From Sphagnum compactum (Eukaryota), in NCBI GenBank assembly GCA_965153455.1, contig OZ234493.1, positions 34,152,213 through 34,216,212 of the forward strand: DNA of 64,000 nt, read 5' to 3'. The notes beneath the pieces are model-generated. The model saw only the letters and a list, made by a program, of their open reading frames with translations, was not told the DNA's origin and searched no databases. Shown in pieces: positions 7,751 through 48,161 of the stretch (position 1 is the stretch's first letter; every line of letters starts with the position of its first letter). The translations under genes and the position numbers were made by a program.

Positions 7751-8155
7751 GGCCAAAGTGAACCAGCGCCCACTAGTGAGTGCATCATGATGGATGGATG
7801 ATAACTGGTCATGAAATAGTTTTCTATTGGGTTCCAGTTCACTAACTAACTATGGTGGTTAGATCAGCTGCGTTTTTTACTACCTACCTATTAACAAAAC
7901 ACAAGTTGGCGGGCCGTTAATAGGTAGGTAGTAAAAACAGCCCTTACCTATGTTTAAACTATCTATTTTATCTAGTAGTCACCCATTTTATTACCTATCT
8001 ACTCATATGTAAGACCTACTTCTTACAAAATAGGTCACCAAGGTGAAACCAGATATTAACCCAGGTAAAGTTCATCCACAACTGATTGGTAGTGGTCATC
8101 TAGTGCATCTAGTGGATGGTGAGTTGCTGGGTGCGGGTGCTGGTTCACTTCAGCA
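7751..8155. mobile_element. ~400-bp MITE (family with terminal AAGTGAACCAGCRCCC repeats)
   Basis: 16-bp TIR with one mismatch (7756-7771 / 8135-8150) and an internal perfect 22-bp hairpin. An inverted homologous copy lies at ~40441-40805, with fragments at ~112-190, ~2634-2680, ~24745-24900 and ~46200-46330. Confidence 0.7.
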
Positions 8156-23149: not shown

Positions 23150-26100
23150 CAAAAATTAATTTATCAAAGTTATCTAATTGTTAATGGCATCTTTTCAATT
23201 TGGTGAAAATTTCAGCAAGGGAAATCATCTTTCAATTTCAATTTGAGAAAATATAGTCCCTAATATTTAATTACTAAAAGGCCAACAAATGGGAACATGG
23301 TTTCATGTTTCTTCCACCACTTTAAAGTGCATTTGATATCTTTTGGATCCACTTAATATTTATGAAATATGAACAATATTTGATTAACAAGGTTTTTTGC
23401 AAGTTTGTTGGTGTCGGCCACCATTTCAAAAATGTCCAAGCTCTTATTTTCATCAATTTTGTAAGCAAGGGAACTTTCAACCTCAAACAATGGATGTAAT
23501 TGATGATAAGACTTCAAGAGCATAGGAAATAAGGATTTCCTATCATATTTTTCAATTATGGCCATTGACCAATAAAAGGAAAGACTAATTTCAAACTCTT
23601 ACATCTAGGATCTAACATTAAGTTAGCATATTATGAGCCCTATCCTTATCATATCTTGTCAAGAAAGAAAGGAAATACTTAATCACCCCAATGACCTCCT
23701 TCTTAATGTTCTTTGCAAAAGTTCCTGACTCAAAAAATAAACCATAATCATCATCATCAATCAACACATCAGATAAAAGGAGATGGTTCATTGCTTCCTC
23801 TTGTTTCAAGCCCATAGATGTGGTTGCATTCAAAGCATCATTCAACAACTAATGACCCTTGGACTAGTTAAAGACGTAAGTAGTGACAACATGAAACAAA
23901 ATGCCTAACATAATCAATGAAATATCCCATGTGAATGAAAGGGGCACATGGCTAATGACACTAGGACCAACCTACTTGTAATAATAGAAGGCAATGGCTT
24001 CTTGGAATTGAAGAGTTTCCTAAAACATGATCATTTTGCTTGCAAACCTACACAATTTAATCTTACTAATCAAAAAGAAACATTTGAAGTACAAAGTTTC
24101 AAAACAATGAAAAGGAAAAAAAAAAAAAAAAAACTTTTATTTTACATTGTTTTTATTAGTGTGTTCAATTGTTTGGGCTTGAGGCTTGTAGTAATGCAAG
24201 CCTTCATCCATTCTTATCTTCCTTTCCTTGACATTTGAGGCCATGTAATACATCTCTACAAATATGACTTGGAAGATTTAATGGAAACATATTTCAAGCC
24301 CTTAAAGACTCTTTCTTTAGTAATTATTACATATTGATGAACCTTAGAGAAGGCATGTCCAAAGCAAGGCCCCCAAAAGTTTTCTATCATACCCAATGCT
24401 TCGAAACTTACTATTGATTTCAAGGTAGATCTCATGGTAATCATATTTGCACATTCAGTTTTAACATAAACAATGATATTTTTTGTCAAGCCATATTGTT
24501 CTGAAAGGTCTAGTAAACTTCTTGTCAATGTTTGTCAAATGCTTCAAATAAGAAAATTATAATGTGTTTAAGCATCCAATCTTCCCCCAAGAAATTCACA
24601 ACTAATGCAAAAACATTAGGTGCCATTTCAAAGATCCGCAAATCAAAACTTGTAATAATCGAAACACATTTTACCAAGACTAGTGAGAAATATGTTTGTT
24701 TTGTCTTCTTAAGCAAGTTTGGTAACATTTTTTAACTAACGGTGGTTACCTAAATTGTTTTTTTTTTGTACCTACCTACTAACAACCCCCAAGTAGGTTG
24801 TTAATAGGTAGGTAGTAAAAACAACCTTTACATATGTATAAATAAACCATCTACTTACTTAATAGTTATTATTTTCCTACCTACCTACCTATGCATGAAA
24901 CCTATTTCCTATCACAAAAGTTGGAATTTCTTGGCATTTATATATTTGATGGGGAGTTTGTCACCCTCTTGCATACACATTCCTAAGGAATTTACCACCC
25001 TCTTTCCATACCCTGGTGGTTTTGTAAGACTTGACATTTACATTTACATCAAGTACTTCGAAAAAACCTATAATGCACTTGGAAGGCACCTTATATCCCA
25101 TCAATTTCCCTCCTTGAAAATGGGAGGGATACTATGCGTACTACTCAAAAGTAGGAAGGTTCTTACACCTAAAAGTAGGCATAATATCCCTCTCACTCCT
25201 ACGCCTCATGATCTATATAAATTCAGTTCATGATAAATTTTTCTTCATGTTTTATGGTAGGTAAAGCCCATGGGTGGGGGACATTCCCAAAATGGGGGGC
25301 TAGACTTGGCGATTGTCTCATCCTAGACCCCTTATTTTGAGAATGTCCTTATCCTAGGGCTTTACTTTACACACGAAACTTGGAATGGGGAAATTCTGAA
25401 AAGAACAAATTAAATCTAAAACTATATCCAAACTCATCACTTTAAGAATTTTTCAAATTCTATGAACTTTACAAAAGTGGAAAGTCCCATTTTTAATCAA
25501 ATTGGGATCTACCCCAAATGGAAGGTGTTACCCAAATTTAAAAACATGTGACCTAATAGGTTGAAAATGTAAGCAAATTGTTAAACTTAACTTATTATTT
25601 AACCTAACCATATTTCTCTGTGTGTTATGAGTGTACTAAATTTCACTATAATGGCAATTTTGGTACAAAATAAAGTACGAGTGGAGTAATTTCACAATTG
25701 AACAAAGTGATGTTGTGATGATTTTTCTTACTATCTTCAAATGTGGTAGTTGATAATCTCTTGAGATCGTAAGGTTGGGCGGAAAATATCCTCCCATTGT
25801 TGTGCAAGAATCTTTTGCAATATTTTTGTACCTTGAGTGTTTGACAACTACTTCGTCGTTCATTTAGCCCTAACATGCAAAGAGAAGCAAATCATTTGGC
25901 TTAGTGGCCTAATTATGAGCTTGAAAAATTAATTATGAAAGAAATCATGTATCTCTTATTTGATTGAACCCAAAAGAAGCAAAGGGACGCCCCTAAATTT
26001 TACTTACTAACAAAATTTAAAAAATGGGTAATTGGTTTTACACAAAATTTTAAGTAAAACCCAAATGAATTTTCTAGTGAGCAATTTTGGACAAGATTGC

Positions 26101-26810: not shown

Positions 26811-26854
26811 GATTGAGAGTTTGAAATTTCTTTACACTACTACATATTGTGCCC

Positions 26855-27380
26855 TTTTGCGAAGGGCCAAACAAAAAATCTGAAGGTTTTGCGAAAGAAA
26901 AACAAAAAACCTGAAAGGTTTGCGAAGGAAAAAAAATTTGCCAAATTTGCGATGCGTTCCACATTGCAACTTGTGGCGCACCATTCATCGCAAATTTAGA
27001 ATGAACCTTTAATCATCGCAGCACTTTTGCGAGATACACAACAAACAAAACTTTGCGATCCGCTCAGTCTCTGTCCACCGTAGCGAAATTCCACCCTTCG
27101 CAACGTTTAATCATACTCAAAACATCGCAACCTTTACAATACACAGAGTATCGCTACAGACTTTGAGATCCACAACACATCGCAACGTGCGGTATGTGGC
27201 GCCTCGCAGTTTGCGTTTCAATATGTATCGCAAACCTCATCACAAATTTTTACAAAACTTTTCGGTGGTGGACGTATCGCAAGGTGCGATGTGAGTTAGC
27301 TCGCAAAGTAGTGAAAGGGTTACTGGAGAAGGAAGTTTCGCAAAAGGGTTTCGCAATGTCATCTGATTCTCAAAACGCCA
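26855..27380. repeat. Left subterminal repeat array of the CACTA element (TCGCAA / TTGCGA motifs)
   Basis: Roughly 20 copies of TCGCA-like motifs in both orientations, e.g. TTTTGCGAA at ~26856 and ~26887, CATCGCAA at ~26986 and ~27123, TTCGCAA at ~27337 and ~27350. Confidence 0.85.
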
Positions 27381-27625
27381 TAAAAAAATAAAAAATCTTT
27401 TAGACCAAATGGAAGCTATAAATCCACTTAACCATTATTATAATCTATGTTGCCTTAGTAGACTGAGTGAAAATATCAATAAAGTACGCATAGCAGTGCT
27501 CCTATTCTTGAAAATAAAATTACACAATGGAGTAGAATAGGCAGAAAATGACACAATGAACATTGTGCAGTAATATAGAATCACAAGCCTCAATGGCAAT
27601 TTGCATAAAATTAATGAGTAGTACA

Positions 27626-30600
27626 TTATACGTGGTCATCATCCACCTCAGAGGTTGTAAACACAACCTCTGGTTTCTCACCTAGAATAGAATGGGACCG
27701 TGGCACATATGTGACAACAAGTGACCACTCCTCTGGGTTTGGGGGATAAGGAAGATAAAAGCATTGTTCTACATGACTGGGAAAAGTAAATGGCTCTGAA
27801 GTTTGCCAATGAGATGGCTGATAACTGGTGGCAGATGTCTTTAACCGTGTGTGTCCGCACTCATCCTGAATTACAGTGCAATTTGCACCAGCAAGGTTCA
27901 CTTTAAACCACTTGCACTTAAACACATACTCTTCAAACTTTGAATGTGCATCATAAGATACCACCAAGATCTCTTCCAGCTTTCCATAATGTGGCACAAT
28001 ATCTCGAACAATATTCCTGTCATGCCGACTGCTTCTAGAGTCCTGAATGAATTGCCCTTGAACTCCACAGTCAAAGGTCCGGCCCCTTTTTTCATCCAAA
28101 CTGGAAATCCTGAAATTAATATTGTGTTAGGCATTGTGAGTCCTAAACTTATATGATAATAGAAACTTCATGCCCATAAAAATCATCCTAGAACATTCTA
28201 AAAAACTTGTCTGGAATATGAAGATGAATTAATATGCCTAATGAAATAGAAAAAATGAATACCTGAAATGTCTTCCTTGTGTCCACATTGCTGAACGTGT
28301 TGTCACAACTTTCAATGGTCCATGAACCATGGTGCGAACATCATCTGTGATCTCTGGAAAACATGCTATACTTTCTCCTTGTGCCAACAATTGATCCACT
28401 TCAACCAACTTCTCTTTCATGTACTTATGAAACGTAGGAAAAATCCTTGATCTCCCACTCATACTTTTGGCATTCTCATAGAAGTTCCTCCACTCTTCCA
28501 TGACATTACTATTATTCAACATGAATGTGGTCAGCTGAATTAACTCTGTAGGTAATAACATACGTGTTTTGATGGCACCAGTCAAATGGTCTTCCTCCTC
28601 TTCTCTTTCCTCCATCCAGACATGAGGACATGATGGATCTATAGTGGCCAAGATGTTGGTGCAATAAAACATGCTCTCTGCTGCCAAGTGTCCTGCTGCC
28701 ATGCTTCCCTCCACTCGTGCATGGTTACGGACATAACCTTTTAATACTGCCATATATCTTTCAAGCCAATACATCCACCGACAATGCACAGGACCAGCAA
28801 TGGCTATCTCATCCACAAGGTGAACTAGTAAATGCACTTGACAATCAAATAATGATGGAGGGAAGGCCTTTTCCAACTTGCATACCACCTCTGCTGCTAT
28901 TACCCTCATTCTTGGAATCTCCTCTACAAATAATTCCTTTGAGCATACCCATCTCAACAGATATCCCAATGACCAAAGAGCATCTTGTACTTCTGCACTA
29001 GCTAAGCCTATTATTGCCACAGGCAATATGTGTTGCAGTAAACGATGATAGTCATGTGTCTTGAAATACCTTGGCCACTTGTGGTCATCGTCCCTACCAA
29101 AAGCTTTTTGAAGATTAGCTCCATAACCTGCAACAAGGTACCATAAAATTATACAAAAGTATTCTAGACATCCAACAGATAACATTCTATACTTCAAACT
29201 CTTTTTCCAGTATAAGGCATACATATTTAAATATAAATAAAAGCAATAGAGTACTTCTAAATTCAACCCTTGCCATCAAAGTTCAAACCTGTAGGGAATC
29301 GCATCTCTCCTATGCGATTTCGAAAGTTTCTTCTTTCTTGTGTAGTAAGTGTCCATGGAGCTGATGGTCGCTGCTCAATACCTGTGTTAGGATCAACAGT
29401 AATCCACACATCGGGATGCCTCTCAAAATCCTCACAGGCCTCCCTAAAGTTACTGTCCTTCTCTCCATAGAGCTGTTTTATGATAGCCTTTCCCACATTT
29501 CCCTCAATGTGCATGGGGTCCAAGAGATGACGTATTTTCAGCTCACCCCAGTAAGGCAAGCTGTTGAGTATACCCCACCTTGTCAATCCACTACCCTCAA
29601 ACACCATAGAATCATTTAGGTCAATAACTCTATTGGCCACATCCCTCTAATATGCAAAAGTGGTAGCTTCTGGAATATCACGCTCATCACCATAAGGCAT
29701 GTCAAAAGATGAAAATAAAAGTGGGTCTGATCTCATATCATGTCCCAATGGAAGAAACTTTGTATGGCCAAGGTAAACAATTTTGCGAAGATGGCTTGAG
29801 TATTTAGCCATGTCCTCGAAACTTGGGCCACATGTAGAGCAGGCCTTGTAGCCTTGAGTTTGCAGCCCACTTACAAAACCAAACCCTGATTGTAGAAGAA
29901 CGGAATATTAGAACAACAAATAATCACAAAACAGAATAATAAAGAAATATATAGAGGCATGTGCATGATTTCTTACCAGGATAATCATACATTGTCCACA
30001 TGCAAATTGCCTTCAACTTGAATACACGTGGTATTCCTCCAGTGGTCTTCCTCCCATCATATGCCCATACTTCATCCCACAATGTTTTGAGCTCATCGAC
30101 CACTAGTGCTAAGTAGGTGTCTAGGTTTTTCACCTTACTTGGCCCTGGGATAATAAGAGAAAGCAGCAAAAATCCTTTTTTCATAGACAACCACGGAGGA
30201 AGGTTGTAATTCATGACAACAACTGGCCAAACAGAGGTAGGTCGTCCCTTTCCTCCAAGTGAATGTGGACTAACACCATCTGATGTTAACCCCAACCTCA
30301 CATGCCTAGGGTCACGCTCAAACTCTAGCCATGTTGACTCCACATGCTTATGAATAGGAGAGTCAACCGGTAACCTCATAACACCAGGCTCTGATCGATG
30401 TTCCTTATGCCAAACCATTAACTCGGCCAAGTCTGTACATCGATACATGTGCAACAAGCGAGGAATAATGGGAAACCACCTTACTGATTTCCTGGGCACC
30501 TTCTCTGTAAGCATCTGAGGATCATATCGAGCCTCTTCACATGTACTGCACTCCGTTAAATGGGCATTGTTCCCATGAAATAACATGCAGTCATTAACAC

Positions 30601-32450
30601 ATGCATGGACAATTTGATACTCCATGCCTATGGAGGATAAGATCTTTTTAGCCTCCTTCCAAGATCCTGGCAAAACATTTTCCTCAGGTAGCAAGAGGCT
30701 ATGACAAAACTGGAAAATGTCTGACAACATAGTATTGCTTGCCTTGTGTTTTGCTTGGATGTTTAACAACCCCAGTATGGCTGCTAAACGGCTTAACCTT
30801 GCACCTTGAAAAATAGGTGTTTGAGCATGTGCCTTCGCCTCTTGCCATTGCCGTTGTGCCTGGGCAGTATGTTGATGACGTGGATCATCTGCATTGGCTC
30901 CTTCATCATGTGGGTTGCCAGACATATCATCAACTATGTCAAGTCCAAACCAGTCAACCATGAAGTCATCCATTGCTTGTTCTTGGTTTGCAGGCAGTGG
31001 TGCTTCCTGAACTGGTTGAGAGACACCTTCATCATGAGCAGACAAGTCATTTGATGAAGAATGAGTTGATGAAGAGTCTGATTTGTCTGGCATGCCCATT
31101 TCCCGATATGTTGCTCTCAACCTCCGTGGCAGCATGTCTTCAGAAGGCCGAATATTCTATGCAATACCAAATCCAGAAGATCTTAACTATATACCAAGCA
31201 TAGTTGCATATTACATTATAAATAAAAAATGCCAAAATGCATGTATATAGATATGGTATGTTATGTCTTAAACAAAGTACATAGTTTAGAAATGGTGGAA
31301 TCCTAATTCCACTCATAGTGTGTAAACAACTCATCTCCTGATCTGATCGTCCTAGTAGCTAACACCAGGGAATGGTCTTCATGATAAGTCTCGCCATATG
31401 GTGCTGGAGGAGGTCCTTCAACAAAAACCCACTCACAATTAGCCCTACGCTTAGGCCGACTCCCCACCGTACTGTTGATGAAACCAGCAATGTTTCCAGA
31501 ACGTATGGGGTCTCCATCTATCACCCTCACATCACTATGCCTCCTAGTGCTACCAGCAAAGGTGTCCATCTCAAGAGCAAAGGTCTTCCACTCAGGATGT
31601 TGTCTGAGGATCATGTTCCAATGTCTTCTCTTATAGATAGGCCCACCATAAGGGAACAAAGTAGGACCCTCTCTACGATAACTAGTTGAATCCTCTACAA
31701 TGATGTCCTCACAAGCATATACTCCATAGCCATGCCTCTCTCCAAGTGTAGAGGCCTTAACAATCCATCGTCTACCCCAAACCACAACCTCCTCATCATA
31801 GGGCAAACTATCAAGCAACCCAAGAACTGCAGGGTTCCATGACTGGATAATATTGGCACATTTGCCAGTGAACTCACACATACCCCATCTGCCCTCAACA
31901 ATAGTCCTAGCATGACCCTCACTTGGACGTTGTGCTTTGGATCGCTGTCTAACGGAGGGCAGACATGGCCTTGCCTCATGATGTGGATTACTGGCCTCAT
32001 GAGAGGCACCAATCCCTACAGCAAATGCATGCGAAAGTGCATTTCCTATGGCAGCTAAAACCCCTTGTGATAGAACATAGGGTGGTGGTGTCATACGGGA
32101 ACCCTATTACATTCAAAAAACCACAACAAACCATGGAAGTGAAAATAGTTTCAAAGAGGATTTCATGAAAAATAACATGTATCAAAGAGGAAAAATGACA
32201 ATGGTAAAATGACACTTACCACATGAGATGAAGAAGCTCCTGGGGTAAGACCACGATGACGCCCAAATCGCTGAATGTGTTGAGCACAAACATATGACTT
32301 TTGTGAAATCTGACCAACACACTTGGTGCATTGGCAAAGCTGCCGAGGTGGACCATGAGGAGAATGAGACACCTCTGCTTGTGTATGAGCTGATGTGCCT
32401 TCATTTGAGGAGGATGAGTCACTAGTGGAGACAACGGAGGAGGAAGACAT
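27626..32450 (-). pseudogene. CACTA TnpD transposase; predicted exons 32450-32220, 31156-29977, 29885-29289, 29127-28263, 28109-27626 (1,118 codons) with one in-frame TAG at 29649-29647
   Basis: All introns are GT..AG with matching phases (total 3,357 nt). Motifs: CQCTKC...CAQHIQRFG (transposase-associated domain), HACVNDCMLF...CSTCEEARY, WFPIIPRL, RHVRLGLTSDG, SVWPV...YNLPPW, DYPG, GYKACSTC, LDPMHIEGNV, RFPTGYGANL, KTHDYH, HLLVHL...GPVHCRWMYWLER (DUF4218-like), YGKLEEI...FKCKWF...EPFTFPSHVEQCFY (DUF4216-like). The single stop in FAY*RD is probably TGG>TAG. Confidence 0.92.
31303..32103 (-). CDS. SET-domain protein (lysine methyltransferase-like) carried by the CACTA element; intact terminal exon (ORF 32094-31303, 263 aa), probably spliced to exon 32450-32220 to give ~343 aa
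   Basis: All four SET signature blocks occur in order: HGYGVYACEDI (GxG), LFPYGG (YxG), IDG...GNIAGFINS...ANC (RFINH-like) and VLATRTIRSGDELFTHY (ATRxIxxGxELxxxY). A TAG acceptor at 32106-32104 is phase 0 and in frame. No stops or frameshifts. Confidence 0.88.
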   Translation of the reverse strand, partial: GSRMTPPPYVLSQGVLAAIGNALSHAFAVGIGASHEASNPHHEARPCLPSVRQRSKAQRPSEGHARTIVEGRWGMCEFTGKCANIIQSWNPAVLGLLDSLPYDEEVVVWGRRWIVKASTLGERHGYGVYACEDIIVEDSTSYRREGPTLFPYGGPIYKRRHWNMILRQHPEWKTFALEMDTFAGSTRRHSDVRVIDGDPIRSGNIAGFINSTVGSRPKRRANCEWVFVEGPPPAPYGETYHEDHSLVLATRTIRSGDELFTHYEWN

Positions 32451-32589
32451 ATCATCTGTCACATTCATAAGGCACAAATGTAAGGCAAAGACCAGATAGG
32501 ACTTTCAAAAATCATGTGATACAACAATATAAACCATTGACAACTCATAAATTGAAACTACCTAAACCAAAAAGAAATGCATACCTGCA

Positions 32590-33076
32590 TCCAATGTGGG
32601 CTCAACAATGCCTATAGGACTGGTTGCCCGAAACCCTTTGGCATATGCACAACAGGAGCTCTCTGACCTACAACTCTCGAGAAGAAACCCTAAACCCTAA
32701 AACTTTGCGAGCCCCTTGCAAACCCCCTACCATCGCATCCCTTTTCGCATCTGCATACGTTACTTAAACCAAAGCCCTAAAACCTTTAACTTCCTCCTAC
32801 GTTAGTGAAGCCCCCGACTTCGCAACCCTCATTCGTTGCGATACGAACAGCATTGCACGGCCGTTGCGAGCAATACCGTATCGTAGGTTGCGATGCGGGT
32901 TACATCGCAAGCCCTGAATTTCTGAAAGTCCTTAAGCTGGAACGGAATAAGGTGTCTGCCCAAGCTTTCTGGGGGTCTAGATTAGAGTACCACGGCGGGT
33001 GAATTTGAACTCATTCTCGGCATTGCTCGAGAATTGTAGAAGGAAAGCTTGGGCAGATAGGAGGGGGCGAATTGCA
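32590..33076. promoter_or_regulatory. Putative bidirectional promoter between the TnpD/SET transcript and ORF2
   Basis: Lies between divergent genes. Contains tandem telo-boxes AAACCCTAAACCCTAA (32685-32700) and a CpG-rich TCGCA/TTGCGA cluster (~32705-32910). There is a 5' UTR splice donor CAG|GTATGC at 32584 on the minus strand. Confidence 0.55.
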
Positions 33077-34897
33077 ATGGCTGGGACTGGTGGAGGGGGA
33101 GGGGGTTCTGGGTCTAGAGGAGGTGACAACAATGAGGAAAGGTTGAGGAAGATGGTTGCTGATCACTTGAGAGCTTCAGAGCTGTTTGCAATCGATACTA
33201 GGACACCCGAAAGGCTACCATCCCTGACAGCCATCTTAGGTCAAGCATTGCAAGCAGGGCTGACTGCTGGGGAAGCACAAAGAGAGGAGGAGGCAAGGAA
33301 GGCTGCAGAAGCCAAGGCAGCAGAGAAGAAGAGAAAGAGAGATGAGAGAGCAACAACAGGAGCTCTCTCACCTAGAACGCTCGAGAAGAAAAGGAGGAAG
33401 GATGAGAGGGATGCCATCAGAAAGGAGAAGCTCGATCTGAAGAAGAAGGAGGAGGAGAGGAAGAAGCTCCCTTTGATAACATTGGCAGAGGAGGGAATTC
33501 CAACCGAGCTGGCATACACTGGGGCCAAAAGCACCATTAGGCACATTGTCTTCACCAACTTTGCACGAGGAGTTGAGTGGGGCACTCTCTCAAAGGCAGA
33601 GCAGAGGAGAGTGATAAATAAGGTCAAGGGAGCATTTCGAAATGGAGGAGAGCTTGATTCACAGTGGATTACAGACAAGATCTCCAATTCAATGTATCAA
33701 GTAAGATACCATGATAGGATGAAGATTTGTGCTCACCTGAGAGACCTGAATGTGTACAGGAACTTGGAGAGGCCGCTTCAGTTCTCAGAAGACATCTGGA
33801 ATGCCTTCTACCAGTCTGAGGTGCAGCTAAAAGCAGCAAGGCAGTTGAAGGAGATCACAGAGCAGCTAGCCAAGGCCAAGAAGGCACGAGAGTCTGGGAG
33901 GTCGGACCGTGACCTGAAGGCACTGGAGCTGAAGCTTGCTGAATGCCAATCAGTGGTGGACGAGGTCGGTGATCCACCATTGAAGTTCCTCAAGGCAGCA
34001 GAGCGAGTGAAACTGGTTCCACCCACCACCCACAGGCTAGGGCAAGGTGGCATTCCCGGCCTCAAAGCAGCATTTGTAAGTACACTCCCTACCCTCCATT
34101 TTTTTTCTGCAAAGATTCGTTTCTGTCGAGTCACATAGGACTGTTTGGGATACCTTTTGTGATGCAAATTGCATCGCAAAGATGTGTCAAATGGCGTTTA
34201 ATTCGCAAAGTTACGATGCTATTTGTTTCGCAAACTGCTTCGCAAGATACAGTATGCGAAAGTCTGCGCTTCGCAAAAGAGTTCGTAGACTTGAACAAAT
34301 CGCAAACTGCTTCGCAAGTTAAAATATGCGAAGTTCTACGCTTCGCAAATATGCGAAGTTCTACGCTTCGCAAATATGCGTTTTTTTTGACCTGTTGTTT
34401 TATGGGGACAGTACAAGAGGTACAAGAGGAAGATCACAGCTGCAGAAATGACAATGGGCCAGGAGCATGGCAAGGAGCATCTTTTTTAACATGTTGATGC
34501 ACTATTGGTGAGTGGGTATTGGTTGGGATTGAATTTCTGTTTGTGTTGAGATTGTTTTCATTTGAATCAAGATTTTCATTGTTGACTAAGCTTTGCATGT
34601 TGAAATGCAGGCATCTGAGGGTGAGAGTGAGAGCTCTCAGGGCAGCAGTGATGAGGAGGAGAGAGGCGCTAGCACTGCTCCCCCCAGTGTAGCTACCACT
34701 AGCAGTGGACCCAATTCATTTGTTAGTCGAAATGCAGGTTCTGCAGGGGGTGTGGGTAGGGAGGAGGATGAAGACGAGGAGGAGGGCAGGGGGACGATGA
34801 AGAGAGGGAGGAGGATGAGCAGCCTCCCCCTCCACCAGAGAACACTAGGAAGAAAGATTCAAGGAAGAAATCCAAGAGGGGAAGGAGGTCTAGATAG
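33077..34897 (+). pseudogene. CACTA ORF2 (TnpA/Ptta-like accessory protein); exons 33077-34075, 34412-34507, 34611-34897; TAA at 34487-34489 and a probable 1-nt frameshift near 34790
   Basis: Long first exon with a K/E/R-rich coiled coil, a helical region with IWNAF, and HRLGQGG (resembles the H..G.GG motif of En/Spm Transposase_24 proteins). Introns are phase-0 GT..AG. The shifted frame after the G-run gives a natural-looking acidic/basic tail GDDEEREEDEQPPPPPENTRKKDSRKKSKRGRRSR*. Confidence 0.7.
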
Positions 34898-35039
34898 ACA
34901 GCTAGTGTGTTAGATACCCGAGACTTGCAAACCCTTTTACATTGTAACTTTTGAAATTTTGATATAGATTTTTTTTTTCCGGCCCAAAGTGACTCCAAAT
35001 GAATATAAACCCTGCGTACAAAATAAGAATATAGTGCCA

Positions 35040-35680
35040 TGCTCTTGCGATACACAGTCAATCTCAAAACTATTTGCGAGTCATATTTCTTCGCAACACT
35101 ACAAAAGCCAAAAGACCAAATATACCATCTCACAGACATCGCTAAACTCTGACGGTTAAAATCATTCCAGAACAGGTTTGCGAAATCCTACATTTCGCAA
35201 ACGTTTAGCGACATTTTGCAAATCGCAAACTCTTTGCGTTAGATATTATATCGGAAACCGATAGAGTTTTGAGTCGATTCGCTAAGTTGTAGCGTTGATG
35301 AGTTTGTTTCAAAACGTTTCCGATGTTTGTTTTATCGCAAATTCGTAGCGGCATCGTAAACATCGCAAAACGTTTGCGTTAGACGTTATATCGAAAACCG
35401 ATAGATTTTTGCGTCTATTCGCTAAGTCGTTGCGATGTTGGGTTTGTTGCAAATAATTTTCGATGTATTGTGAATCACAAATCATGTATAGAAGACATTA
35501 TAATCGGAAATGTTTTGCGATTATTTCAGTTTCGGGAGTTGCGAAGAGCTTGCGATTGTACGGGTGCGAAGGTGAGGGTTTCGCAAAGGCTTAAGAGTTT
35601 GCGAGGAATTGTTGTTCGGAACTGCGGGTTTTCGGAAACTGTTTTCTTTGTTGTTTGCGATGATATTTGGATCGCAATAT
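35040..35680. repeat. Right subterminal repeat array of the CACTA element
   Basis: Many TCGCAA/TTGCGA/TCGCTAA motifs, plus a larger duplicated block (TTTGCGTTAGA..TTATATCG.AAACCGATAGA at ~35233 and ~35373). Confidence 0.85.
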
Positions 35681-36689
35681 GCCCCTCTTTTGTTGTAGTG
35701 TTAGACCAACTCTTACCTTCAATCTCTCCTCCAATTTTATATCATTTTCATTTATGAACACATCACATCCCTCATCTAGAAAATTTGATTCAATTTCTAG
35801 GATGTGTTAACAAACCAAGGCTAAGAAAATTAAATAATTACATTCTTTTTAGTTTTGCAAAATGTGAAAATGCACACAAATTATTCACCAGTTGATTCAC
35901 TTTTCACAAAACACAATATGCAAGTAAAGTGTTTAAGTGCAAAATTGCTTCAAACTAAATTTAAACTCCCCATTCCTAGACCCGCAAGTATTGGACCTAG
36001 GGTTATTTATATAACCTACTCAGGTATCAAAATTTGAATTAAAGAAAAAGACTTAGTTTTTTGTGAATTAGCCATTTCAAGTTACATACCCTAAACTTTG
36101 GGTTTCATGTCAAATATCATTGAGTGATACTTGATTAGTTTTTTGCATGAGAATGGATTGAAAACCAAGCCAATTTCTGAGCACAATTTGGTACTACCCA
36201 ACACTAGCAATATTAACAAAAGGGAAAAACACCATAGAAATAGCATAACAAGTTTGACACCACTTAATAGGGGCCTAGTGGCTATTAGTTAACTAGATGC
36301 ATATAAATGATTAGTACATGGGTAAAGATTAATGGGTTGTTAGTAGGTAGGTAGAAAAACAAGAACTAAGCTAACCATAGTAATAAGTTATGGAATTAAG
36401 GCTAAAATGAACTAGCACCCACCAATGCAATAGTTGACCATTCTATCTGTAGGATGGGCTACATTTCTTCATCCAATTTTTGACCTTGTGTTAACCCAAC
36501 GTTGCACCACATTCAACTTTTTTGGGTTGCTGACCTTTGACCTTTTTTATTTTTTAGGTGCTTTTTCCCCAACCTTGACCATAGTACCCACCAATTTAGT
36601 CACCTTAATTCTCTAATGACCCTATTGACCTACCTACATTATTGACCTACATCTTGGTTTTACTTACCAACCCTTTACTTACCTACCTT

Positions 36690-47973: not shown

Positions 47974-48161
47974 ATAGATAAGTACAACTTTTCAAAACAA
48001 GTAAAAACTTTACCTTTTTCAAATATGTTCAAATGGTCCACATAGTTCCAGAAGAGATTATATAACATTAATATTAATCATGTACAACCAATTAAAATTA
48101 ACTGCTTGCATCAAGAATAAGGTTAAGTTTTTACTTGTTTTGAAAAGTTGTACTTATCTAT
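47974..48161. mobile_element. 188-bp fold-back MITE-like element with a perfect 37-bp inverted repeat
   Basis: 47974-48010 (ATAGATAAGTACAACTTTTCAAAACAAGTAAAAACTT) is the exact reverse complement of 48125-48161. Confidence 0.7.

Follow-up and report, generated by a model that had tools for sequence, protein, structure and literature searches.

The maize transposon En/Spm makes the proteins TnpA and TnpD from one transcript by alternative splicing, and SETMAR, a SET–mariner fusion of primates, is a host gene whose SET domain is followed by a captured, dead transposase. To our knowledge, transposon-borne chromatin enzymes are rare, and they provide one of the few routes for an element to influence its own epigenetic state directly. 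Here, a stretch of 64,000 nucleotides from Sphagnum compactum (GCA_965153455.1, contig OZ234493.1, positions 34,152,213 to 34,216,212; the whole stretch is referred to below as the window) was analyzed, in which a CACTA transposon of the En/Spm superfamily was found. The robust part of the result is that intron 2 of the transposase gene of this element holds a conserved, transcribed SET gene.

The Sphagnum element resembles maize En/Spm in its superfamily, CACTA ends, 3-bp target-site duplication (TSD), subterminal repeats, and tnp2-type transposase, and in being a transcription unit from which more than one product would be obtained by alternative RNA processing. It differs in that the second product would be a SET-domain protein rather than a DNA-binding protein of the TnpA type, in that the switch suggested by the reads is between splicing and run-on with termination rather than a choice of exons, and in having a further gene on the opposite strand (32981–34138, plus strand). 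Like SETMAR, it has SET and transposase sequences connected by splicing at a single locus; in Sphagnum, however, the SET gene is a component of a mobile element present in many copies, and the two are alternative products rather than a fusion.

SET genes have also been described in other transposons. In a recent preprint, the accessory gene PAG2 of Plavaka, an EnSpm/CACTA transposon of the red alga Bostrychia moritziana, is said to carry DNA methylase and SET domains (bioRxiv 10.1101/2025.02.11.637652), so that Plavaka, too, is a transposon of the CACTA superfamily with a SET-domain accessory gene. Going by that description, the Sphagnum element differs in its land-plant tnp2 transposase and in its small SET protein, which is without a methylase and is encoded on the same strand inside a transposase intron. 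SET genes are listed for HarbingerS and oomycete MuDR elements (Kojima & Jurka 2014, as cited in PMC12730594), and Helitron captures of SET genes are mentioned in the same preprint (bioRxiv 10.1101/2025.02.11.637652). These, like the Sphagnum element, are DNA transposons with a SET histone-lysine-methyltransferase as cargo and a presumed epigenetic action, but they belong to other superfamilies and hosts, and the excerpts that describe them speak of neither nesting in a transposase intron nor a shared exon. For CACTA elements of land plants, full-text literature searches turned up no description of a SET gene; Repbase Reports and supplements, which lie outside that scope, may hold one. Transposon-borne SET is thus already known, and what is new here is the nesting in a transposase intron, the conservation of this order across bryophytes, and the possible sharing of an exon.

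A SET gene in intron 2 of the transposase gene

An initial annotation of the window, made from the letters alone, had proposed that a single exon with a Cys/His motif can be joined to either of two downstream acceptors, giving a SET protein or a transposase. The parts from which this was built are present as described, on the minus strand. The Cys/His exon (32450–32220 from its ATG; as exon 2, 32220–32455) carries the motif CQCTKC, runs for 77 codons, and ends at the phase-0 donor GTG/GTAAGT. Both acceptors are in frame with it: TAATAG/GGT at 32103 gives 77 + 266 = 343 amino acids (aa), and GCATAG/AAT at 31156 gives 1,118 codons, with a TAG at codon 550 that the annotation had passed over. The SET-domain open reading frame (ORF) lies between the two (31303–32103, minus strand, stop at 31305–31303), with 266 codons counted from the acceptor and 263 aa from its own ATG at 32094.

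Part of the stretch was contained in 14 RNA runs from 11 studies, of which four were used: X1, X2, and X6, which are metatranscriptomes available as contigs only, and X20, a stranded poly(A) run with raw reads. About 12% of X20 was read at a likeness of at least 92%, and joints were listed from three reads up. The joint 32220 to 31156 was found in 17 + 1 reads with 15 start positions, and seven further reads had a loose end at 31157 whose overhang matches exon 2. The splice from the Cys/His exon to the transposase exon is therefore real, in agreement with the long junction of the initial annotation, and it defines intron 2 as a GT..AG intron of 1,063 nt (31157–32219, minus strand) that contains the SET gene.

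The remainder of the transposase gene could be followed in the same way, all on the minus strand. Exon 1 was recovered as its 3′ part (32585–32627; the 5′ end is unmapped), with the donor CAG/GTATGC after 32585, from X20 joints and one spliced X6 contig. In X20, this donor was joined to acceptors at 32455, 32450 (with three other letters between), 32421, and 32339 by 2 + 6 + 6 + 3 = 17 reads. Exon 3 (29977–31156), placed by Pfam, X20 reads, and frame joining, encodes the N-terminal region of the transposase and the start of Transposase_21, the rest of which lies in exon 4 (29289–29885); exon 5 (28263–29127) encodes DUF4218 and exon 6 (27626–28109) DUF4216, up to the stop at 27628–27626. The Pfam E values of the three families were 3.2e-36, 7.6e-32, and 3.6e-07, respectively. 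Exons 3 to 6 are connected by the joints 29977 to 29885 (18 + 1 reads), 29289 to 29127 (29 reads), and 28263 to 28109 (21 reads), and when all RNA-supported junctions are joined a single frame of 1,118 codons results, with its stop at codon 1,119. In the window copy, this frame is interrupted by one premature TAG, at codon 550 in exon 4 (29649–29647), where another copy (L012, see below) has TGG; because of this TAG, the window copy is unable to make a full-length transposase, though its SET ORF is intact.

First mates of X20 fell on the plus strand for the transposase/SET gene, which marks its sense. Sense depth over SET was 15.3–15.6, against 0–0.2 antisense, and bins of the transposase exons had depths of 18–56; SET depth was roughly half to three-quarters of exon depth. 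The SET ORF is transcribed in sense, on the same strand as the transposase and inside its second intron. The short junction of the initial annotation, 32220 to 32103, fared otherwise: it was not among the X20 joints, meaning fewer than three reads in this one run, despite the SET depth of ~15. Likewise, no loose end at 32104 was among the X20 loose ends listed, with 58 others outside those listed. The contigs of X1, X2, and X6 gave no such joint either, but contigs cannot show absence; they were collinear with the DNA even across verified introns (one spliced intron-1 contig of X6 excepted) and are for this reason uninformative on splicing.

Fold, motifs, and age of the SET ORF

By sequence, the 266-aa ORF matched Pfam SET by a narrow margin (E = 9e-05, 23.3 bits against a cut-off of 22.4). 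Across its family, PF00856 was matched by 41 of 52 members at E ≤ 0.01 (best 5e-09). A search of PDB sequences with SET returned only chance matches, at E = 0.18 and above. An AlphaFold model of residues 58–263, built from 52 sequences, had a predicted local distance difference test score (pLDDT) of 92.5 and a predicted template modeling score (pTM) of 0.87; an earlier model built from 13 sequences was poor (pLDDT 51.5) and was discarded. Foldseek comparison of the model with the PDB gave 287 matches at E ≤ 0.001, of which the top 50 listed were SET enzymes. The best were LegAS4 (8swi, 5czy), SET8/SETD8, MLL1, G9a, and ATXR5, aligned over ~150–160 columns with E values of 1.6e-07 to 1e-05 and a probability of 1.00; at 14–23% identity and a template modeling score of 0.43–0.49 on the query, these matches do not allow substrate specificity to be read. 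Judged from the predicted structure, the ORF is a true SET fold.

Canonical SET motifs are GxG, YxG, N-H-S-C, and E-L-x-F/Y-D-Y. The aligned relatives of the Sphagnum ORF have the invariant blocks GxG, F-P-Y-x-G, D-G-D, I-N-S, and E-L-x3-Y. Also conserved in the family are H-G-Y-G, F-P-Y-G-G, the Asn of I-N-S, a second invariant Asn, before which ~10 residues are inserted, and E-L-F-T-H-Y. Set against the solved enzymes, the Sphagnum protein is without pre- and post-SET Cys clusters and has Ser for the His of N-H-S-C. As has been put forward for SET accessory genes of other transposons, it would most probably be a lysine methyltransferase whose action falls on chromatin at the element or near it.

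Among bryophyte proteins, 49 relatives of SET were found, the closest of them from Sphagnum species, and a profile of 13 relatives reached 135 clusters at E ≤ 0.001 among 1.84 billion representatives. Ordinary SET proteins were not reached by this profile, so that the element SET proteins appear to form a small, distinct clade. Identity was 63–65% to models from Calypogeia and 33–40% to those of Riccia and other relatives. Intact SET ORFs occur in many copies and in at least six Sphagnum species, and in a cluster of 360 members all 15 members listed, out of 40 read, were 263–348 aa long. Two Riccia models bear on the order of the domains: P0050 has SET and then transposase, and P0182 has Cys/His, SET, and transposase in turn. 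As both put SET upstream of transposase and P0182 starts with Cys/His, the Cys/His–SET–transposase order is old. SET is on this evidence a genuine and ancient gene, and its place between Cys/His and transposase is shared with liverworts.

The Cys/His exon

The initial annotation had labeled the Cys/His exon a transposase-associated domain. Its motif is CQCTKC-x9-V-CAQH-I-x2-F-G (as a pattern, CxCxxC-x9-V-x3-H-I-x2-F-G). Pfam gave no family at E ≤ 0.1 for the 77-aa exon, nor was PF13963 (Transpos_assoc) matched at E ≤ 1 by the related proteins P0001, P0015, and P0040. The related protein P0051 (1,135 aa, from ENA contigs of 3.9–4.6 kb) starts with the Cys/His motif and continues directly into transposase; BLASTP aligned the exon with its N terminus without gaps (E = 3e-05), and this N terminus matched PF13963 at E = 0.0056 with 17.3 bits, below the cut-off of 27.7. 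Angiosperm relatives of the transposase have PF13963 at the corresponding N-terminal place. When a profile of the bryophyte exon was compared by hhalign with 11 angiosperm transposases, it found their CPCxxC columns among 1,111 (E = 0.0017), with a probability of only 15.5%. The label thus finds no direct Pfam match, and the likeness through P0051 and hhalign is weak but consistent. We take the exon to be a divergent N terminus of the Transpos_assoc type, native to the transposase; it does not reach membership of the Pfam family itself.

Conservation among copies of the element

A scan of metagenomes with the Cys/His exon gave 18 loci (L001–L018), 84–96% alike, all of which are collinear, unspliced genomic copies. 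The donor at 32220 is identical in 18 of 18. Conservation of the acceptors, named in the initial annotation as a check, was nearly but not wholly borne out: CATAG/AAT of the transposase is kept in all three loci that reach it, and the AG of the SET acceptor in 11 of 13, with AA in L007 and L012.

Between the donor and the SET acceptor lies an interval of 116 nt (32104–32219, minus strand), a candidate short intron that would join exon 2 to SET. It reads GTAAGT...TAATAG, has 71% A+T, and contains four ATGs upstream of SET, including an ATG-TAA start-stop just before the acceptor. All 13 loci that span the interval keep it, with lengths of 116 nt (seven loci and the window), 117 (four), 118 (one), and 121 (one); as its length varies among copies, it is not taken to be read as protein. 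Change at G/C sites amounted to 15 of 567 cells (2.6%) in the interval and 57 of 774 (7.4%) in intron 1; at A/T sites, the counts were 6 of 1,385 (0.4%) and 36 of 1,548 (2.3%), respectively. These cells are not independent, the copies being related. By these counts, intron 1 has changed two to six times as much as the interval, at G/C and A/T sites alike, which suggests that the interval may have a regulatory role in splicing control, as a leader, or as a promoter.

Nearly every difference between copies is a C>T or G>A change; in the Cys/His exon, these make up 120 of the 126 changes at G/C sites. In X20 reads, C>T was seen at 118 places and G>A at 121. Such an excess would be expected if methylated cytosines in silenced repeats were deaminated. 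Copies also fall into subfamilies that break at 32627–32698, where L006, L008, L012, and L016 have ~365 nt in place of ~70 nt of the window. As 28 X20 reads depart from the window sequence at 32627, the expressed copies belong to the ~365-nt subfamily.

Proposed RNA processing at the locus

Two poly(A) RNAs from a single minus-strand unit, one spliced and encoding the transposase and the other running on into the SET gene and ending by intronic polyadenylation, are in our judgment the probable explanation of these data. The transposase mRNA runs from a short leader exon to the Cys/His exon (32455–32220) and then, across the 1,063-nt intron, to exons 3–6; the long splice yields a tnp2-type transposase of 1,118 codons, which in the window copy has been knocked out by a single TGG>TAG change. 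In the SET mRNA, the long splice would be left unused, so that the RNA would continue into the intron, through the SET ORF, and be polyadenylated after its stop. How much SET is made relative to transposase would depend on whether the RNA is spliced or polyadenylated. Since the sampled RNA keeps the 116 nt, translation would begin at the ATG of SET itself and give the 263-aa protein; alternatively, a 343-aa fusion of Cys/His exon and SET would be made only where the small intron is spliced, under conditions outside those sampled.

The site of termination is suggested by read depth. Immediately 3′ of SET, an A+U-rich flank (31157–31302, minus strand) is the probable place of intronic polyadenylation, as deduced from X20 bins. 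The bin 31117–31417 had a depth of 10.1; taking ~30 over its 40 exon bases and ~15.6 over the last 115 SET bases, ~9.9 would be expected if 31157–31302 were uncovered and ~17 if it were covered like SET. We infer that SET RNA ends shortly past the SET stop and before the transposase acceptor. The same arithmetic gave a depth of ~11–15 for the 116-nt interval and of ~32–37 for the Cys/His exon, against a transposase junction count of 18–25, which hints, though weakly because exon depth is uneven, that SET RNAs may extend upstream through the unspliced interval. As for the place given to SET in the initial annotation, that of an alternative terminal exon in intron 2, the nesting, the sense transcription, and the fall in depth before 31157 agree with it; the splice from exon 2, at fewer than three reads, does not.

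Several observations weigh against the run-on explanation. All reads come from a single raw-read run, and most are 95–99% alike to the window, so that they derive from sister copies and possibly from another Sphagnum species. The 5′ end and the poly(A) site of the SET RNA are deduced from bins of 301 nt over exons whose depth is threefold uneven, and neither poly(A) tails nor transcript start sites were seen in X20 reads. A SET RNA that began at exon 1 and retained the 116 nt would have eight or more ATGs ahead of the SET ATG, whose own context is poor; these features favor the fusion and speak against the 263-aa form being translated efficiently. In the aligned members the canonical N-H-S-C His is replaced by Ser, and activity is thus not assured. 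The SET ORF is intact in the window but in only one of the five metagenome loci that span it, the other four having premature stops, and the ratio of nonsynonymous to synonymous polymorphism (pN/pS) of SET between the window and close copies was neutral, at 0.81–1.26, so that no sign of recent selection on SET was seen among close Sphagnum copies. With respect to the His, its mutation abolishes the activity of SUV39H1.

The explanation that survives best beside the run-on RNA is that of the initial annotation, in which the donor at 32220 serves two phase-0 acceptors and the 343-aa Cys/His–SET fusion is a regular functional product, with a module shared between the two enzymes and the same targeting for both. 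We hold it to be quite possible, if on balance doubtful. The support for it is indirect. The 116-nt interval resembles the verified introns in its GTAAGT, its U-rich tract, its TAG/G, its 71% A+T, and its size, within the 91–161 nt of those introns; 11 of 13 copies retain the SET acceptor, indels that would shift a reading frame are tolerated in the interval, and its four ATGs would block scanning to the SET ATG. Gene models of the fusion come from two annotation sources: models of 343 aa exist for S. fallax (BDL97_20G002100, BDL97_01G001900) and for five other Sphagnum species, among them S. jensenii, S. troendelagicum, S. balticum, and S. compactum; models of Calypogeia fissa have the same join (SSSHM/GSSM), and Riccia models P0113 and P0125 have the Cys/His motif upstream of SET. 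P0120, a 423-aa ORF of a distant relative on a Logan contig of 2,141 nt, aligns with the 343-aa model in one match from CxCxxC to the C terminus of SET (E = 7e-49) and has no Met at the start of SET; it is assumed to have been called without intron modeling.

Against the fusion stand the reads of X20, in which the SET acceptor was used by fewer than three reads and the transposase acceptor by 18 at a SET depth of ~15, and the metagenome copies, of which 13 of 13 spanning the interval retain it. The ENA and Logan ORFs P0251, P0253, and P0256 read straight through the interval, as unspliced DNA or RNA would. Of 18 proteins found with the exon, 17 were read: 12 had the SET join, one used another acceptor, P0015 had a different join, and three read through, and the RNA-proven transposase junction was in 0 of the 17. 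Gene models are on this account poor witnesses, as predictors evidently prefer the short intron. Other models start at the SET ATG and are 263 aa long (S. magellanicum CY35_04G110300 and CY35_15G051900; S. fallax BDL97_17G082600), and a Met at the start of SET recurs in Sphagnum, P0013, P0036/37, and P0040. That the SET acceptor is in frame is weak evidence alone, since it has a one-in-three chance and only three open codons precede the SET ATG; the TAG of the acceptor itself closes the frame three codons upstream of that ATG. The reading of one exon for two enzymes is in this way half shown, by its transposase arm, and the suggestion that the Cys/His module targets SET to the element ends is speculation.

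Somewhat further from the data, and in our view unlikely, is the explanation that SET is an independent nested gene with its own promoter in the Cys/His exon or in the interval, that it makes only the 263-aa protein, and that the in-frame acceptor is coincidental, the Cys/His exon being the transposase's alone. It would account for the presence of 263-aa models in both annotation sources, for the Met that recurs at the same SET position in relatives, and for the unusual conservation of the interval, as might be found in a promoter or leader. Relatives on short contigs that open near the same N-terminal helix without Cys/His (P0013, P0023, P0028, P0039, P0041, P0110, P0115, and P0121) also fit it, as does the lack of a fusion junction among X20 reads. 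However, read starts did not cluster near 32100–32220 in X20, bin arithmetic puts SET RNA, if weakly, upstream of the proposed promoter, and the fused ORF of P0120 speaks against an independent gene. That the SET ORF is a captured piece in decay, functionless in present-day Sphagnum, its reads being retained-intron noise, is very improbable, for although pN/pS is ~1 among close copies, four of the five metagenome copies spanning the ORF have premature stops, C>T/G>A decay is strong across the family, and the window copy's transposase is itself broken, intact ORFs are present in many copies and at least six Sphagnum species, identity across bryophytes (63–65% to Calypogeia, 33–40% to Riccia and others) comes with invariant motifs, and SET depth, comparable to that of exons and dropping before 31157, is unlike that of a uniformly retained intron. 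What probability these three explanations leave goes to a 263-aa protein made from the shared run-on RNA, or to something else.

In the run-on explanation preferred here, the locus offers a simple switch by which the RNA is either spliced or terminated in the intron, whether or not a small regulated intron takes part. Its basis is a conserved SET gene that, in mosses and liverworts alike, sits within the transposase gene in a constant order, and that the verified long splice skips. A wider reading, which we put forward tentatively and think rather unlikely, is that in this old bryophyte CACTA lineage one Zn-binding exon is the N-terminal module of two enzymes, regulated removal of the 116-nt intron leading to the SET arm and the long splice to the transposase, with the unspliced RNA as an "off" state of SET. 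If the fusion is true, the locus would be a natural case of a DNA-binding module common to a chromatin writer and a transposase; on the shared-module reading, RNA processing would decide whether the element marks its own chromatin or excises itself. If the fusion is not true, the annotated "SET domain-containing proteins" of Sphagnum and Calypogeia are still transposon genes, and the models miss the real transposase junction.

Exon 1 variants and transposase gene models

The GT of the exon-1 donor is kept in 17 of the 17 loci that cover it; the last bases of the exon are CAG in 14 of these, CAA in L002 and L016, and affected by a 2-nt gap in L001. Intron 1 had variant acceptors in the reads, at 32455, 32421, and 32339, and a further read form, shorter by 2 nt at 32451–32455, would place an ATG located at the end of exon 1 in register with the Cys/His ORF. 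As it stands in the window copy, this ATG opens a different, overlapping frame of 80 codons. A protein search with transposase exon 3 returned no full-length Sphagnum transposase model, only a chimeric model of 1,720 aa. This model, P0061 of Sphagnum balticum, has a WRKY domain (PF03106) joined to a stretch 96% identical to the transposase exon and is probably an annotation chimera of a host gene and an inserted element. Exon 2 begins with a Ser-rich stretch and exon 3 contains another; an origin of the two by duplication was considered and rejected, as alignment scores lay within the range of 500 shuffles and point to low-complexity likeness.

Boundaries of the element and its second gene

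The complete CACTA transposon of Sphagnum spans 26835–35700 (8,866 bp), with its transposase/SET transcription unit on the minus strand. The left terminal inverted repeat (TIR), CACTACTACATAT, lies at 26835–26847, and the right one, which ends in TTGTTGTAGTG, at 35688–35700; they are flanked by the TSD TTA at 26832–26834 and 35701–35703. These termini, CACTAC.../...GTAGTG, were read by eye and then by script: 10 of 13 bases are complementary and the 3-bp flanks are identical. A TIR script that required 14 of 20 matches gave nothing relevant, and a looser TIR and TSD filter recovered the element ends but was passed by one further pair in the 64-kb window, so that the filter alone is not specific. 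The identification is for this reason carried by the subterminal repeats and by the coverage of multi-copy contigs from the RNA runs, which begins at 26843, near the left end. Copies of the motif TTGCGA/TCGCAA number 15 in the left 600 nt and 20 in the right 1,400 nt, compared with 12 in the 6.9-kb middle of the element and 15 in the 55 kb outside it. CACTA TIRs, a 3-bp TSD, subterminal motifs, and a tnp2-type transposase are thus all present. In Sphagnum genomes, CACTA is given as the most abundant classified repeat type, at 6.8% (PMC9946827).

A second gene of the element is transcribed divergently. Its first part is an open frame of 385 aa (32981–34138, plus strand), rich in Lys, Glu, and Arg, for which Pfam gave no family. 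Here first mates of X20 fell on the minus strand, at a depth of 4–10, and a GT..AG joint 34506/34610 was found in three reads. It may be the TnpA-like partner of the element.

An inverted-repeat scan of the window found only palindromes on TACCTACCTA, all outside the CACTA element. These short repeats, at 7874–7937, 24760–24888, and 36334–36368, are up to 100% complementary and may be ends or remnants of some other repeat family. Elsewhere in the window, at 47974–48161, a 47-nt inverted repeat, 96% complementary and with a 94-nt spacer, forms a hairpin of a size like that of miniature inverted-repeat transposable elements.

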